Shown: piece after piece, positions 2,836 to 40,370 of the stretch
How the letters are laid out: each line of letters starts with the position of its first letter
Numbering within the stretch: position 1 is the stretch's first letter
Sequence record: PZ445463.1
From: a phage
Direction: 5' to 3' (one strand)
Length of the DNA: 43,096 nt
The notes under the pieces: model-generated
The model's input: the letters and a program-made list of their open reading frames with translations, nothing else
What the model was told of the DNA's origin: nothing
Databases searched by the model: none
Program-made: the position numbers and the translations under genes

Positions 2836-3879
2836 ATGAGCTTACTTACATCCCTAATCAGCCATCAGATATGGCTGCAACGCACCGCATCCGGTGAGGT
2901 GAAAGACCTCACGCCGTTCATTCAGGAGATAAGGGATGAAATCAAACGGCAGGTGCTGTTATTCGGTGACGACGGTCGCAGCACTGCGCGACTGAATAAA
3001 CTGTTACGCGACCTGGAAGAAGCACTAACCGGTATTACGGGTGACTGGCAAACAAAGCTAACAGACGACCTTAAGGAACTGGCGGCGTACGAGGCTGAGT
3101 GGAACGTAAAGACACTGACCGCCAACGTAGACGCGGAATTTGTTACGCCTACCGCTGAGCAGGTATGGGCCGCTGCCGAGTTTCAACCATTATCATTGAG
3201 CGACAAGCCCGTTGATTTCACCAAGCTGATGTCTGGATGGGGCGAAACGGAAGTAGCACGTCTTGTAACTGGAGTTAAGATGGGCTTTGTGCAAGGTCAA
3301 ACCACACGGCAGATTGTTAAGAATGTTGTTGGCGCTGGTGGACTAGCCGACATCTCAGAACGTAACGCGACTACGGTAATCCGCACCGCGCTGTCCCACG
3401 TATCCAACGAGGCCCGTAACGAGACGTACCGCCAGAACGACGACATCATCGAGAAGTACGAGTGGGTGTCAACGCTTGACAGCCGCACCAGTACGATTTG
3501 CAGGGTCAGAGACGGGATGACGTGGGAAATTGGTAAGGGGCCGATGCCCCCAGCCCATCCGAACTGCCGGTCGTGCACGGCTCCGGTAATCAGTTCCGAG
3601 TTCGACTTCCTCGATAAAGGCGCAAAACGCGCGGCTAAAGGCGCGGAAGGTGGCACTCAGGTAAGCGCAGACACCACTTACTACGAGTTCCTTAAACAAC
3701 AACCGGCGTGGTTTCAGGACCAGGCGCTCGGCCCGGTGCGAGGTAAGATTTTCCGTAACAGCGGTATATCGCCGGAAGAGTTTCGCGTAATATCTGTAGA
3801 TGGTTTCGGGAATCCGCTCACGCTTAAGCAGATGGCGGAACTCGATAAACGTGTTGCTGATTATCTGAAAGGGGAATAA
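2836..3879 (+). CDS. Head morphogenesis / minor head protein (SPP1 gp7 or Mu F-like by position)
   Basis: 347 aa ORF following portal; assignment by synteny and size, not by a recognised motif. Confidence 0.55.
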   Translation: MSLLTSLISHQIWLQRTASGEVKDLTPFIQEIRDEIKRQVLLFGDDGRSTARLNKLLRDLEEALTGITGDWQTKLTDDLKELAAYEAEWNVKTLTANVDAEFVTPTAEQVWAAAEFQPLSLSDKPVDFTKLMSGWGETEVARLVTGVKMGFVQGQTTRQIVKNVVGAGGLADISERNATTVIRTALSHVSNEARNETYRQNDDIIEKYEWVSTLDSRTSTICRVRDGMTWEIGKGPMPPAHPNCRSCTAPVISSEFDFLDKGAKRAAKGAEGGTQVSADTTYYEFLKQQPAWFQDQALGPVRGKIFRNSGISPEEFRVISVDGFGNPLTLKQMAELDKRVADYLKGE

Positions 3880-4340
3880 TGATGGGCTTTTTCAAAGTAA
3901 CTGACGTACCGTCTCGTCGCGTAGTCCAGTACGCCCGCGTGTCTGGCTCTGGCGAGAACGTGGTATTTATTGAGGACGAAAGTGTACTCGGTACACCGGT
4001 AGATGATATGCCGTTTGCAGATAAAACCGGTATTGCGTTGCCCGCCGCCGGTATGCTTTATGAAATTCCGTATCTGGCGGACGCTGGCGACGTGTATTTC
4101 TCTGCGCAACCGCAGGACGCTGAACTGGCGGGCGGCAGCGCAACCATCACTGTCGAGGTTAAGGCAGGCAAAGCGCCGTATTCTCTGACCTGGTACAAAG
4201 ACGGTAAGGAAGTGGTGAATGCGCCTGAGGAGGCTCTGTCTCTGACGGTTAATGCGGTCGGCGAATACTTCGTTAAAGTTACTGATGCCGATGGAGTAGA
4301 GGCGGTAAGCAAAGCGGCGAAGGTTACTAAGCCAGAATGA
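3879..4340 (+). CDS. Ig-like domain protein (possible capsid decoration)
   Basis: C-terminal motif KAGKAPYSLTWYKDGKEV...GEYFVKVTDADG resembles bacterial Ig-like fold; paralogous motif in ORF 7341-7685. Confidence 0.55.
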   Translation: MMGFFKVTDVPSRRVVQYARVSGSGENVVFIEDESVLGTPVDDMPFADKTGIALPAAGMLYEIPYLADAGDVYFSAQPQDAELAGGSATITVEVKAGKAPYSLTWYKDGKEVVNAPEEALSLTVNAVGEYFVKVTDADGVEAVSKAAKVTKPE

Positions 4341-4343
4341 TAA

Positions 4344-4370
4344 AAGGCCCCATTATGGGGCCTTAGTTTT
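4344..4370. terminator. Bidirectional terminator between convergent genes
   Basis: aaggcccca-tta-tggggcctt followed by agtttt. Confidence 0.5.
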
Positions 4371-4573
4371 CAACGGAATCTTGTGTTTAAATCCTGCTCA
4401 TGGACAACCCTCAGAACAGTGTCATAATCCCCGTATCTTCCAGGTTCAAATATATCTAATGCCTTGTAAGCAGACATTGCGTCAGGGAAAACCTGCAGAA
4501 CCTTTTTAACCCGGCACAAGTCACCGTCGAACTCTTCATCGAACTCTTGAACTACTTCGCAAATTGCATACAT
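4370..4573 (-). CDS. Hypothetical 67 aa protein, reverse-strand moron in head module
   Basis: ORF with AGGAGGTG SD (revcomp of 4579-4586); own promoter 4601-4629 on - strand; convergent terminator hairpin 4347-4362. Confidence 0.6.
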   Translation of the reverse strand: MYAICEVVQEFDEEFDGDLCRVKKVLQVFPDAMSAYKALDIFEPGRYGDYDTVLRVVHEQDLNTRFR

Positions 4574-4598
4574 TTTTCACCTCCTGTTTAAGTTAACT

Positions 4599-4629
4599 GA
4601 ATAGTACCCTATTATATTGGGGTGTGCAA
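4599..4629. repeat. 31-bp exact repeat (second copy at 13124-13154)
   Basis: gaatagtaccctattatattggggtgtgcaa identical at both loci. Confidence 0.9.
4601..4629 (-). promoter_or_regulatory. sigma70-like promoter TTGCAC-N17-TACTAT with embedded GAATAG-N4-CTATT inverted repeat
   Basis: Read on - strand; 31-bp block 4599-4629 identical to 13124-13154; drives gene 4370-4573. Confidence 0.55.
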
Positions 4630-4680
4630 ACTATTTATTTACGTATTCCAGTTATTCCTCGAATTGTAAATGTTGGAATA

Positions 4681-4696
4681 AACTATTCGAATAGTT
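4681..4696. promoter_or_regulatory. Perfect 16-bp palindrome AACTATTCGAATAGTT
   Basis: Uses the same CTATTC/GAATAG half-sites as the promoter-embedded repeat, in everted arrangement. Confidence 0.4.
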
Positions 4697-4947
4697 GACT
4701 TTTCACTAAAAATATGATAAGCTCCACCTGAGCTTGTGAAGTATGAACAAGCGACCGCGGCGCGGGCAGGTAACGGAGCGGGACGTAAGTCCTGAGTGCA
4801 GTTACGCTGACGCGTTCGGAAGGGCCATACTCTATTGCTTGTGTAAAAAGTAACTGGTTTACTGAGATTACGCCGTTTCTATGTTTAAATGATAAGGACT
4901 AGCGCCCCGCTTTATGGCGGGGCTTTACTTATCGAGAAAGGGGAAAC

Positions 4948-5334
4948 ATGAATCTTAAAGCAACTGTCGTAGCAGGAGCATGTTTCATCATCCTGGTTTA
5001 CGCACACGGCATCTACCAGTATCGCAGCGGATGGAACGAAGGCCGGGCTAATCTCGTTTCGCAGCAACAGCAGAAAGCACAGGCTGAGTTAGCGAAGAAA
5101 ACACAACGGCAGCAGCAGGATGAATCGAAGGCCGCCGCCGCTGACAACGAAGGCAAGACGAAATCAGAGGTGATTACCCGTGAAGTCGTTAAGTACATTA
5201 AAACGCCTGGTCGCAGCGTGTGCACTTTTGACCCTGAGCGCGTGCAGCTCAAGTCCCGCGCCGTCGCCAACGCCAATTCCATCCCCGGATACGACGATGA
5301 TGCAGCCGCCGTGCAAACTGGCGCAGCCAAGTAG
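4948..5334 (+). CDS. Rz-like inner-membrane spanin (i-spanin)
   Basis: N-terminal TM segment ATVVAGACFIILVYAHGI followed by Q/A/K-rich coiled-coil-like periplasmic domain; overlapping +1 frame lipoprotein ORF. Confidence 0.6.
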   Translation: MNLKATVVAGACFIILVYAHGIYQYRSGWNEGRANLVSQQQQKAQAELAKKTQRQQQDESKAAAADNEGKTKSEVITREVVKYIKTPGRSVCTFDPERVQLKSRAVANANSIPGYDDDAAAVQTGAAK

Positions 5335-5443
5335 CGACGCTGATGAGGATTTGGCCGTCGACGTTCAGAATGCTGAATGCGTACGGCAACTGAGACTGAA
5401 AGTGTTCATGTTGCAGGATTACGTGAGGAATATTCTGGAATAG
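5180..5443 (+). CDS. Rz1-like outer-membrane lipoprotein spanin (o-spanin), overlapping Rz in +1 frame
   Basis: Signal peptide with lipobox LSAC (LTLSAC) then proline-rich SSSPAPSPTPIPSP; overlaps 3' end of Rz-like gene. Confidence 0.55.
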   Translation: MKSLSTLKRLVAACALLTLSACSSSPAPSPTPIPSPDTTMMQPPCKLAQPSSDADEDLAVDVQNAECVRQLRLKVFMLQDYVRNILE

Positions 5444-5525
5444 TTGCCTTGCATGTTGGAATAATTTATTCTTGACATGTAAATCCGGGTGGCCCGGATT
5501 CCAACGTCCAGGGGACATACTGACT

Positions 5526-6227
5526 ATGAATCGTTTTTTACGTTATCCGTTCCAGGAAGAAGCTGGAGCAGAAGATAAAGCTGGTGGCGGTGACGCTCCT
5601 AAAATGTTCACCGCTGAAGAAGTTCAGGCGCTGATTGAGAAAGAAGTTGCCGGGCTTAAGGCTAATCAGGAAGCATTGTTGGCGGAGAAGAAAGAAGCCG
5701 CTCGCAAAGCAAAAGAGGCCGAAGAAGAACGGCAGCGCGCGCACCAGGAGGCGTTAAAAGCCGCTGGTAAGATGGATGAGTTCGAAAAGACGATTCGTAG
5801 CCAGTACGACCCTGTGTTAGCCGAGAAAGACGGTCGCATCTCCAGAATGGCAGAGCGTATCCTCGGCAGCGAACGTAAAGCGGTGCTAGGCTCTTTCGCG
5901 GGTGACTTTATTACCCCAGAAGCAGTGGACATTCTTGCGCCGTTCGTTAAGACTGAGTTCGAAGGCGATGATGTGGTTACTAAGTTTGTTGGTGCAGACG
6001 GTAACGTAATCACGACTGACCCGGAACAGTTCCGCAAATACCTGCGCGAACACAAGGCGTTTTCGCATTTGATCAAAGCAAATGCAGCTTCCGGCGGCGG
6101 GGCTTCCGGTAGCAAAGGCGGCGGGGCCGCACCAGCGTTTAAAGACATGAGTGAAGCAGAGCGTTTAGCCCTGTATAAATCGAACCCTGCCGAATTTGAA
6201 CGGCAACTTAAAGCCCTGAGGAAATAA
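5526..6227 (+). CDS. Scaffolding protein
   Basis: Charged helical protein (EKKEAARKAKEAEEERQRAHQEALKAAG) directly upstream of major capsid gene; start chosen at ATG 5526 with AGGGGA SD rather than ORF-track start 5472. Confidence 0.55.
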   Translation: MNRFLRYPFQEEAGAEDKAGGGDAPKMFTAEEVQALIEKEVAGLKANQEALLAEKKEAARKAKEAEEERQRAHQEALKAAGKMDEFEKTIRSQYDPVLAEKDGRISRMAERILGSERKAVLGSFAGDFITPEAVDILAPFVKTEFEGDDVVTKFVGADGNVITTDPEQFRKYLREHKAFSHLIKANAASGGGASGSKGGGAAPAFKDMSEAERLALYKSNPAEFERQLKALRK

Positions 6228-7294: not shown

Positions 7295-7323
7295 GAGAGG
7301 GACTTCGGTCCCTCTTTTCATTT
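7295..7323 (+). terminator. Rho-independent terminator after major capsid gene
   Basis: gagagggac-ttcg-gtccctctt then ttcattt. Confidence 0.6.
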
Positions 7324-7721: not shown

Positions 7722-7901
7722 ATGGCAGATAATTATGTAATCCGCGAAAAGTACACCCACGTTGATATTTTAGACGGTCAGGTGATGCCTGTTCGCGGTG
7801 TGGTAGAAGCGGATGAACTGGTTGCGACTCAACCGGACAACGAAGAAGCGCACAACAACGGCGGTGGTACTAAGCGTCGCCGCCGTAAGTCAGAGGAATA
7901 A
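7722..7901 (+). CDS. Hypothetical 59 aa protein
   Basis: ATG 7722 preceded by AAGGAAAGG SD; C-terminal basic tail KRRRRK; below ORF-track length cut-off. Confidence 0.4.
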   Translation: MADNYVIREKYTHVDILDGQVMPVRGVVEADELVATQPDNEEAHNNGGGTKRRRRKSEE

Positions 7902-7904
7902 TTT

Positions 7905-8417
7905 ATGCCGCTAATCGTGGAAGATGGGTCAATAGTACCTAATGCTGACAGTTACATTAGTCTGGCTGACGCCCGCGCGTTAGCGGCTAATTATGGTCTG
8001 GAGCTACCTGCAGACGATACCGCCGCAGAGGTGGCCCTGCGCAACGGTGCTACTTATGTCGGGCTTGCAGAGCCGCGGATGTGCGGTCGTCGGGTGTCCG
8101 CCGAACAGTCTCTGGCGTATCCCCGTACCGGGGTAACGTTAAACGGATTCCCGGTAGCGGATAATGTTATTCCGAAACAGGTGATTCTTGCGCAGGTAGT
8201 CGCCGCCGTTACGTACGGCTCCGGTACTGAGGTGCGGGCTAACTCGGACGGTCGTTCCGTGCAGACTGAGCGCGTAGAAGGCGCAGTGACCGTGACCTAC
8301 TTCAACAACGGCAGCAGTGGCGCCACAACCGCGATTACCGCTGCGGACGACGCCTTACGCCCGTTACTGTGTGGTGGTCTTAACAACGGCTTCTCATTTA
8401 ATGTGTACCGGGGTTAA
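7905..8417 (+). CDS. Head-tail connector / head completion protein (by position)
   Basis: 170 aa ORF in head-tail joining block; synteny only. Confidence 0.4.
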   Translation: MPLIVEDGSIVPNADSYISLADARALAANYGLELPADDTAAEVALRNGATYVGLAEPRMCGRRVSAEQSLAYPRTGVTLNGFPVADNVIPKQVILAQVVAAVTYGSGTEVRANSDGRSVQTERVEGAVTVTYFNNGSSGATTAITAADDALRPLLCGGLNNGFSFNVYRG

Positions 8418-39220: not shown

Positions 39221-39529
39221 TTGGATAAATTTACTGAAACAGTGACAGGCTGGCTTCTGGCAGCCGCACTAGCTGGTGGGGTAATCGGACTACGACAACA
39301 TAAGTCCGCTATTTCCGGCCCTATCGACGGATTCTGCTTTATTGCAACTGGCTTCACTTGCGCCGTATTTGGCGCGCCTCTCGCCGCTCAATGGTTCGGT
39401 ATTACCGGAGAGCGCGAGATAGCTGGCCTCGGATTCATCATCGCAATTCTCTGGATGCCCATCTATTCCCGTCTCTCCGGTATCGTCGCCGGAGAATACA
39501 TCGCACGTCGAGGAGGCACAGATGAATGA
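39221..39529 (+). CDS. Holin (multi-TM)
   Basis: Three hydrophobic helices (TGWLLAAALAGGVIGL; FCFIATGFTCAVFGAPLAAQWF; IAGLGFIIAILWMPIY), charged C-terminus; upstream of endolysin. Confidence 0.6.
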   Translation: MDKFTETVTGWLLAAALAGGVIGLRQHKSAISGPIDGFCFIATGFTCAVFGAPLAAQWFGITGEREIAGLGFIIAILWMPIYSRLSGIVAGEYIARRGGTDE

Positions 39530-39794
39530 ATTATTCTGGTTCGGCGGTATGCTGGCAATCGGAGGCACATCGCTGTTTAATGTATATCACCCCAGCGCGG
39601 ATGACGGATTATTTGGCCGTGTGCTATATATCCTGACCGCTATTGTCTGCGCCGCAGGATGTATCCACCTGTTACAGGGCAGCATGTCTCCGACGCTGCC
39701 TGAGACATTAATCACATTAGTTGCGCTGCGCCAGATTCGTCAGGCGTGGCTGTCATACGGAGGACATAAGCGTGTCTCGAAATATTTCAGATAA
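39522..39794 (+). CDS. Small two-TM membrane protein (second holin/antiholin-like)
   Basis: Two hydrophobic helices; lies between holin and endolysin. Confidence 0.45.
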   Translation: MNELFWFGGMLAIGGTSLFNVYHPSADDGLFGRVLYILTAIVCAAGCIHLLQGSMSPTLPETLITLVALRQIRQAWLSYGGHKRVSKYFR

Positions 39795-39884
39795 TGGACT
39801 TACCGCAGATAAGCTGCGCGAGGTTTTACACTACGACCCCGATACCGGAGTTTTCGCGAACCATAAATTACGGGAAGGTGCTTT

Positions 39885-40370
39885 ATGAGAAACATTAGCA
39901 ACAATGGCATCAAATTCACCGCCGCGTTCGAGGGATTCCGCGGAACTGCGTATCGTGCTACGCCAAATGAGAAGTACCTGACTATTGGGTACGGTCATTA
40001 TGGGCCAGACGTAACGCCAGGCAAGACCATCACCCCGGGACAAGGCCTCCTGTTACTGAATCGTGATATGGCTAAGGCTGTAGCTGCGGTTGACGCAGCA
40101 GCACACCATTCATTGACACAGGCACAGTTCGATGCAGTGTGCGACCTGGTATACAACGCAGGTGCTGGTGTGATTGCTGCTACTACCGGCACGGGTAAGG
40201 CACTGCGTTCTGGTGATATTGCAACGCTGCGGGCTAAGCTGACACTGTTCATCAACCAGAACGGCAGACCGTTACTTGGTCTGCGCCGCCGTACTGCCGG
40301 TCGTCTGGCGCTGTTCGACGGTAAACCGTGGCAAGAGGCAGAGGCTATCGGGCGCGCGGTGAAAGGTTGA
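39885..40370 (+). CDS. Endolysin, T4 lysozyme-like (GH24) muramidase
   Basis: Catalytic region FEGFRGTAYRATPNEKYLTIGYGHY matches the E...D...T triad context of phage lysozymes. Confidence 0.85.
   Translation: MRNISNNGIKFTAAFEGFRGTAYRATPNEKYLTIGYGHYGPDVTPGKTITPGQGLLLLNRDMAKAVAAVDAAAHHSLTQAQFDAVCDLVYNAGAGVIAATTGTGKALRSGDIATLRAKLTLFINQNGRPLLGLRRRTAGRLALFDGKPWQEAEAIGRAVKG

Follow-up and report, generated by a model that had tools for sequence, protein, structure and literature searches.

The two overlapping genes at positions 4948–5443 of the window (the whole analysed stretch of phage DNA, 43,096 nt) were assigned to a Kagunavirus two-component spanin that falls into the published 'Jersey' family and has the overlapped architecture. 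The probability of this reading was estimated at approximately 90%. The assignment was supported by homology and by the genomic context of related genes. Positions 4700–5700 were 100% identical to Escherichia phage SonjaBuckley_Bas74 (Bas74; PQ850627.1, 43,096 bp, circular), a siphophage of the BASEL collection that belongs to the genus Kagunavirus (Guernseyvirinae); window positions equal the positions of this record minus 538. The annotation of PQ850627.1 already reads 'Rz-like spanin' for both genes, and the BASEL paper makes no mention of spanins. A recognisable copy of the 496-nt spanin region was found in approximately 490 phage records, nearly all of which were Salmonella or Escherichia Guernseyvirinae. 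The spanin pair and its placement are already known, and Bas74 is a new isolate of a catalogued family. A structured leader upstream of the spanin genes is the one possibly new item at this locus.

Architecture and family of the spanin pair

The i-spanin gene (Rz-like; Bas74_0008) extends from 4948 to 5334 on the plus strand and encodes 128 aa. The ORF, the hydropathy profile, the PHROG match, the alignment with relatives, the AlphaFold helix and the GenBank annotation were all used for its identification. The start codon is ATG and is preceded by AAAGGGGA. The sole hydrophobic stretch of the protein is N-terminal and covers approximately residues 3–23, with a Kyte–Doolittle 15-residue maximum of 2.37. 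In the single-sequence AlphaFold model, residues 3–64 formed one long continuous helix with pLDDT values of 75–92, and the C-terminal half was of low confidence. The protein matched PHROG 2536 with an E-value of 4.8e-57 and was 66% identical to Jersey gp09. Moreover, Cys92 was invariant and the ITxEVxxY...R.xC.F motif was kept in the alignment of its relatives. The search against Pfam gave no lambda-type Rz family at E ≤ 0.1; the top match was DUF2514, at 16.8 bits for a cutoff of 26. In PDB sequence searches, the i-spanin and the o-spanin yielded chance matches only (E of approximately 0.4–0.5), and no related solved structure was found.

The o-spanin gene (Rz1-like) is located at 5180–5443 on the plus strand and encodes 87 aa from a GTG codon in the +1 frame. 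It shares 155 nt (5180–5334) with the i-spanin gene and runs 109 nt beyond the i-spanin stop codon. The N-terminus consists of a predicted signal peptide, MKSLSTLKRLVAACALLTLSA followed by C, and then the Pro/Ser-rich linker CSSSPAPSPTPIPSP. The signal peptide has a positively charged n-region, a hydrophobic core and the lipobox LSAC with Cys22, and the residue at +2 is Ser (CSS). Lipoprotein signals were screened with a rule-based filter, and the o-spanin was the sole ORF with such a signal among the ORFs of 40–250 aa in all six frames of the 43-kb window. There was no second hydrophobic stretch in the o-spanin and no other lipoprotein ORF in the genome, which argues that the protein is not a unimolecular spanin of the T1 gp11 type.

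The conservation of the three cysteines of the o-spanin was explored in relatives that included Jersey, VSt10, pink, PhiSTP2, Serratia Otaku, Klebsiella VLCpiS11a and the Dhillonvirus Bas84. Cys22, Cys45 and Cys67 were invariant in 8 relatives at 43–64% identity and in 6 further relatives at 33–45% identity. Unlike the cysteines, the sequence of the signal peptide varied freely among the 8 relatives. The residue at +2 in these 8 proteins was S, Q, P, A, N or G, and was Asp in none of them. An alternative lipobox, VAAC with Cys14, was considered and rejected: its hydrophobic core would comprise just four residues after Arg9, and Cys14 is not conserved. The o-spanin was 64% identical to Jersey gp10 and matched PHROG 1267 (E = 3e-21) as well as PHROG 5672. 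It had no Pfam match, and the NCBIfam search gave sub-threshold matches only, among them NF038368 (P2_Rz1, P2 LysC) with 17.3 bits and an E-value of 0.004, which is under the cutoff of 27 bits.

The o-spanin called in GenBank (Bas74_0009) starts at an ATG, covers 5300–5443 on the plus strand (record positions 5838–5981) and is 47 aa long. The GTG at 5180 has a good Shine–Dalgarno-like sequence, GAGGTGA (5167–5173, plus strand; recognised by reading the sequence), which ends 6 nt 5' of the codon, whereas the annotated ATG has none. Jersey has an ATG at the position of the Bas74 GTG, and the RefSeq entry of Jersey gp10 is the full 87 aa. As judged from these sequence features, the 47-aa call is truncated and is without the signal peptide and the lipobox. 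PHROG 5672 is a profile of 47 positions that matched residues 41–87 of the o-spanin only, and this length suggests that the truncated call is widespread. Hence, the GTG at 5180 should be taken as the start both in the GenBank entry and in the PHROG family that was derived from similar calls.

The coding status of the two frames was evaluated from the substitutions relative to Jersey and VSt10. The excess of third-position substitutions was in the i-spanin frame for the part covered by the i-spanin only and for the overlap, and in the o-spanin frame for the part covered by the o-spanin only. Because the substitutions concentrate at the third positions of each gene's own frame, both frames appear to be coding. 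According to this pattern, the constraint in the overlap is dominated by the i-spanin.

The Jersey spanin family comprises 27 members, including Jersey, K1G, K1H, K1ind1-3, SETP3 and HK578 (Kongari 2018, PMC6139136). The family was classed as 'overlapped'; the overlap in Jersey is 155 bp, and Cys45 and Cys67 of the o-spanin are constant, whereas some members overlap by 8 bp only (PMC6139136). Such an 8-bp overlap was found for the spanin genes of PhiSTP2. The 155-nt overlap, Cys45 and Cys67, the identities of 66% and 64% and the matches to PHROG 2536 and PHROG 1267 together place the Bas74 pair in this family. Compared with Jersey gp09/gp10, K1G, K1H, SETP3 and HK578, the Bas74 pair has the same overlap, cysteines and genome position and differs in nothing material, apart from the o-spanin that is annotated too short in the Bas74 record. 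The literature searched on Jersey-type spanins was found to hold bioinformatic assignments only, with no experimental test.

The pair was also compared with better known systems. The logic of lambda Rz/Rz1 is the same: a type II inner-membrane protein is combined with an outer-membrane lipoprotein in the +1 frame, and both systems have periplasmic cysteines. However, Pfam detected no sequence homology between the two pairs. Furthermore, the lambda Rz1 gene lies entirely within Rz, whereas the Bas74 o-spanin gene protrudes from the i-spanin gene at its 3' end, and the Bas74 o-spanin has a predicted helical C-terminal part and two extra cysteines relative to lambda Rz1. In lambda, the pair comes immediately after S and R, which is not the case for the Bas74 spanins. 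The overlapped architecture is shared with LysB/LysC of P2, and the similarity of the o-spanin to the P2 profile NF038368 is weak and sub-threshold; the P2 genes sit in the lysis cassette, and the Bas74 spanin genes do not.

The original prediction had described an Rz-like first ORF with an N-terminal TM segment and a helical domain, overlapped in the +1 frame by a proline-rich lipoprotein with the lipobox LSAC. Both descriptions agreed with the results given above, and the spanin identity of the pair was borne out by the matches to PHROG 2536, 1267 and 5672, by the identity of 64–66% to Jersey gp09/gp10, and by homologues that directly follow holin and endolysin genes (see below).

Position relative to the holin and endolysin genes

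The holin/endolysin cassette consists of a holin gene (39221–39529; PHROG 2359), a second holin or antiholin gene (39522–39794; PHROG 2508) and an endolysin gene (39885–40370; Phage_lysozyme PF00959), all on the plus strand. The distance from the end of the endolysin gene to the start of the i-spanin gene round the circular genome was 7674 nt (43096 − 40370 + 4948), and the cassette at 39221–40370, approximately 7.7 kb away across the genome junction, was as predicted. No spanin candidate adjoining the endolysin gene was found when the holin/endolysin region was checked and the lipoprotein ORF filter was run over the whole genome. The spanin and holin/endolysin genes are on the same strand and form part of one rightward block, which begins near 36.8 kb in record coordinates and takes in the terminase and head genes.

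The pair had been predicted to lie between the head-morphogenesis and scaffold genes. The scaffold gene is indeed the right-hand neighbour, but the head-morphogenesis gene (2836–3879) is not the left-hand one. The spanin genes are preceded on the left by a Hoc-like decoration gene (3879–4340), then by a small reverse-strand gene (4370–4573) and then by a 375-nt non-coding stretch. In Jersey, pink, VSt10, PhiSTP2, Serratia Otaku, Klebsiella VLCpiS11a and Golestan, the pair was flanked on one side by head-morphogenesis or decoration genes and on the other by the scaffold gene. The spanins of Dhillonvirus Bas84 occupy the same position, and the start of its i-spanin gene overlaps the end of the head-morphogenesis gene. 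As judged from these gene orders, spanins between the decoration and scaffold genes are a conserved feature of Guernseyvirinae and Dhillonvirus. The accessory genes in the slot to the left of the spanin genes differ from phage to phage. The separation of the spanins from the holin and endolysin was already stated in print for Schulenberg (2019; PMC6763661). Schulenberg is a different phage, with approximately 68% nucleotide similarity to Golestan (PMC6763661). In the Golestan paper, the spanins are ORF7/8, and the holins and endolysin are ORF66-68.

More distant homologues were explored by scanning IMG/VR with the i-spanin alignment, which gave 80 loci. In the most distant of these loci (35–41% identity), the homologous pair directly followed the holin and endolysin genes. 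The order in two of them (L083 and L084) was a P21-type holin (PF04971), Phage_lysozyme, the i-spanin and an overlapping o-spanin with the lipobox LSAC. The spanins followed Phage_holin_8 and GH19 in two others (L087 and L088), and GH108 with PG_binding_3 in another (L086). The occurrence of homologues in such textbook lysis cassettes is the strongest sequence-based argument for a lysis role of the Jersey-type pair. The comparison of gene orders also indicates that the head-module placement of spanins in the Guernseyvirinae would be a relocation.

Proposed mode of action

By analogy with lambda Rz/Rz1, the N-terminal helix of the 128-aa i-spanin would serve as its inner-membrane anchor, and the largely helical domain of the protein would reach into the periplasm. 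The 87-aa o-spanin would be exported and lipidated on Cys22, as in the same model system. It would then be delivered to the inner leaflet of the outer membrane via the Lol pathway because the residue at +2 is Ser and not Asp. The C-terminal parts of the two proteins would bind to each other, as in the lambda model, to give a complex that crosses the periplasm through the peptidoglycan mesh. This complex is probably stabilised by disulfides via Cys92 of the i-spanin and Cys45/Cys67 of the o-spanin. The spanin complexes would be kept inactive by the intact peptidoglycan mesh. Once the holins (39221–39794) have released the endolysin (39885–40370) and the wall has been degraded, the complexes may move and collapse, and the collapsed complexes would fuse or rupture the outer membrane as the last step of lysis.

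In well-studied phages, spanin complexes reportedly accumulate during late expression and stay inactive until the endolysin acts on the peptidoglycan. Under this model, the timing of spanin function is set post-translationally by the holin and the intact wall, and not by spanin transcription. Since spanin activity is gated by the wall, the spanin genes would not need to be linked to the holin and endolysin genes. The spanin genes of T4, pseT.3/pseT.2, likewise lie apart from the holin (t) and endolysin (e) genes; they differ from the Bas74 pair by their separated architecture, the absence of homology and another genomic context. The unlinked spanin genes of T4 and the gating by the wall suggest that unlinked genes carry no necessary regulatory meaning.

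Structured leader and possible regulation of the pair

The stretch upstream of the i-spanin gene contains several signal-like elements, all on the plus strand. A palindrome, GGAATAAACTATTC (4675–4688), lies upstream of the promoter-like site TTGACT-17 nt-TAAGCT (4695–4723). This site was missed by the promoter scan because its −10 hexamer matches at just 3 of 6 positions. The palindrome and the −35-like hexamer are retained in the Jersey, VSt10 and pink types, together with a TAnnCT hexamer at the same 17-nt spacing. A G+C-rich, terminator-like hairpin, GCCCCGC-TTTA-TGGCGGGGC followed by TTTACTTAT, is located at 4904–4923, 24 nt before the ATG of the i-spanin gene. The leader between the promoter-like site and this hairpin is approximately 175 nt long. 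The stem of the hairpin is kept by compensatory changes in relatives (e.g., GCCCTGC/GCAGGGC and GCCCGAC/GTCGGGC), and the Jersey and pink types have a weak U-tract after it.

The palindrome recurs on the plus strand as GGAATAATTTATTC, abutting TTGACA (5458–5477), in the gap between the o-spanin and scaffold genes; this second copy is followed by the hairpin CCGGGTGGCCCGG, the whole element spanning 5458–5497. Jersey, VSt10, pink and PhiSTP2 also have both copies of the palindrome, each at the corresponding position. The hairpin motif CCGGGTGGCCCGG has a single occurrence, which matches the chance expectation. GGAATA half-sites were not enriched genome-wide (26, with approximately 20 expected) and were clustered around the spanin genes only. 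The palindrome at the spanin locus was also written GGAATAATTTATTCC.

A conserved structured RNA core was delimited at 4725–4826 on the plus strand; it consists of hairpin 1 and a long interrupted hairpin with a GNRA-type loop, followed by an invariant CGGAAGG. The Kaguna-type and Jersey-type leaders differ in sequence and have the same two-hairpin fold. The covariance model R1, which was built from the Kaguna-type leaders, gave exactly one match per locus in 54 loci, always just upstream of the i-spanin gene. The scores were 101–129 bits for the Kaguna type, 30–38 for the Jersey type and 16–19 for the pink type. In the covariance-model alignment, 18 of the 29 base pairs were changed on both sides, and 94.7% of the cells were paired vs. 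27–39% when the partners were slid; the observed values were reached by none of 500 shuffles, and these pairing figures are somewhat inflated because the alignment was fitted to its own model. Frequent G–U pairs in the stems fit an RNA of the plus strand. The single-sequence energy of the whole 205-nt leader fold was only modestly better than that of the shuffles (z = −1.64), and by itself this energy would not have drawn attention to the leader. A plain MAFFT alignment of all leader types gave no structure with RNAalifold because the types were misaligned in it.

The 288-nt leader had 95–100% identity in 179 phage records. According to the mean pairwise identities in 37 loci, the leader (0.95–0.97) and the spacer between the spanin and scaffold genes (0.93–0.96) were more conserved than the spanin genes (0.81–0.95) and the scaffold gene (0.71–0.88). 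The Rfam scan of 4300–5600 gave no match at E ≤ 1. Moreover, the leader had no match in 5,426 complete E. coli genomes, which means that it was neither derived from the host nor taken from a prophage in those genomes. The RNA element is a conserved feature of Kagunavirus and Jerseyvirus, where it occurs as three sequence types, and is without an Rfam family. A 36-aa ORF, Bas74_0007 (4743–4853), is annotated in the same stretch and is probably spurious; it had no PHROG match, its frame is broken by the indels of the Jersey type, and it overlaps the covarying stems.

The promoter-like site, the conserved structured leader and the hairpin mark the spanin pair as a probable distinct transcription unit, and the proposal that the pair heads a unit of its own thus receives partial support from the sequence. 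The spanins of Kagunavirus-type phages would then sit at the head of a scaffold–capsid transcription unit. The late operon of lambda likewise begins with the lysis genes, preceded by the promoter–leader–terminator unit pR'-6S-tR'. By analogy with this unit and with HK022 put, the spanins may constitute the leading cistron of a late unit that has its own, sigma-70-like promoter, in which the undescribed structured leader of approximately 200 nt would control read-through into the spanin, scaffold and capsid genes or would be released as a small RNA; this proposal is tentative and was considered unlikely as a whole. A search of the literature on transcription or antitermination in Guernseyvirinae found nothing relevant.

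The original prediction had drawn from the separation of the genes that the disruption of the outer membrane is regulated separately from the holin and endolysin. Such an independent control would fit the promoter-like site, the operator-like palindrome, the covarying leader RNA and the hairpin that precede the pair, and the non-coding stretches are 95–97% conserved vs. 71–95% for the flanking genes. The covariance model R1 had its single match in the window at the spanin leader and none at the holin/endolysin region, where the sole palindrome match had 2–3 mismatches and lay inside the holin coding sequence. However, the spanin and lysis-cassette genes share the strand and one rightward block, and the palindrome also precedes the scaffold gene, which points to co-regulation with the head genes and not to a control specific to lysis. 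The timing imposed after translation by the intact wall, together with the unlinked spanins of T4, also weighs against the regulatory conclusion. Hence, the separation as such does not imply separate regulation, and an independent control of outer-membrane disruption was judged doubtful.

A less probable explanation is that the spanins and the leader form a moron-like mobile cassette, recently passed between Kagunavirus and Jerseyvirus lineages, so that the conservation of the leader reflects recent transfer and not function. The leader is 95.5–96.5% identical where the adjacent spanin genes are 75–81% and the scaffold gene is approximately 82% identical, and the differing accessory genes in the left-hand slot would also suit an exchange. 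However, a recent transfer would have brought the spanin genes as well, yet these are diverged. Compensatory changes keep the stems paired within and between the leader types, which argues for selection on the structure, and the unit occupies one fixed position in all relatives; this explanation was therefore regarded as improbable. The reading of the first ORF as a head-assembly or structural protein accompanied by a chance +1 ORF, or with only the 47-aa C-terminal piece being made, would agree with the location inside the head module, the GenBank call and the lack of a Pfam match above threshold, but it is highly implausible given the lipobox and three cysteines kept at 33–64% identity despite a diverged signal peptide, the Jersey ATG at the position of the GTG, the Shine–Dalgarno-like sequence before the GTG, and the homologues in holin–endolysin cassettes far from head genes.

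The assignment of the two genes to the Jersey family of two-component spanins is thus preferred. The Bas74 pair shows again that spanin genes need no linkage to the holin and endolysin genes. If the leader is regulatory, it would offer a first handle on late-gene switching in these siphophages, which are widely used as therapeutic and model phages.

Leader unit upstream of the i-spanin gene

An unannotated unit lay on the plus strand at 4690-4935, directly 5' of the i-spanin gene; it combined a promoter-like site with a structured RNA and a hairpin. The RNA core at 4725-4826 contained two hairpins, and covariation was observed at 18 of its 29 pairs when leaders of the Kaguna, Jersey and pink types were considered together. 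The unit showed 95-100% identity among 179 phage records and was more conserved than the flanking genes. No family in Rfam was matched by the leader RNA, and a search for the unit in E. coli genomes returned no match. Bas74_0007, annotated on the plus strand as a 36-aa hypothetical protein (4743-4853), was located inside the covarying RNA stems. Its reading frame was not kept in the Jersey-type leader, and a family search with it gave no match. Bas74_0007 is probably not a gene.

Surroundings of the spanin unit

The palindrome GGAATAAnnTATTC(C) was present in three copies, at 4675-4688, 5458-5471 and 7895-7908. The first two were situated on either side of the spanin unit, each followed by TTGAC(T/A), and both positions were kept in the related phages Jersey, VSt10, pink and PhiSTP2. 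Additional GGAATA half-sites were clustered at 4644-4675 and 5427-5458. The palindrome is a candidate operator. The copy at 7895, which overlapped both a start codon and a ribosome-binding site, may be a chance occurrence.

To the left of the leader, a reverse-strand gene of 67 aa, which had a terminator-like hairpin of its own (4364-4344), was inserted at 4344-4573, separating the decoration gene from the spanin leader. The same interval in Jersey held either no ORF or a plus-strand ORF, and other accessory genes occupied it in pink (a 58-aa gene), VSt10 (a 179-aa gene) and Golestan (two genes). These differing accessory genes among the relatives identify the interval as a variable moron slot.

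Scaffold, capsid and terminase genes

Upstream of the scaffold start, a plus-strand hairpin, CCGGGTGGCCCGG followed by GTCCAGGGGACATAYTGACTATG, was found at 5485-5497 without a U-tract. Its conservation reached Serratia phage Otaku, and a role in translation or RNA processing of the scaffold-capsid mRNA is possible. A strong terminator-like hairpin, with a 9-bp stem followed by TTCATTT, was located on the plus strand directly 3' of the major capsid gene (7295-7316); the late genes 3' of it would require read-through or a promoter of their own. At the left end, Bas74_0002 (1-1272; record 539-1810), annotated as a hypothetical protein, was co-linear with a Golestan gene called 'terminase family protein', and it probably encodes the large terminase subunit.

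The o-spanin and its family

The deposited o-spanin, Bas74_0009 (5300-5443), was a truncated call of 47 aa that lacked the signal peptide and lipobox. The start is likely the GTG at 5180, which would give a product of 87 aa. The PHROG 5672 profile comprised 47 positions, matching the truncated form. A homologous pair in Salmonella phage PhiSTP2 (locus L004, 2440-3031) overlapped by only 8 nt, and its o-spanin had an unrelated signal peptide and the lipobox ITGC. This pair represents the family's 'separated' variant, a form previously discussed for FSL_SP-031 (Kongari 2018, PMC6139136). Distant family members were housed in canonical holin-endolysin-spanin cassettes at five IMG/VR loci (L083, L084, L086, L087 and L088). 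The endolysins of these cassettes were of three types, namely PF00959, GH19 and GH108 with PG_binding_3, so the spanin pair has been brought together with differing lysis partners.
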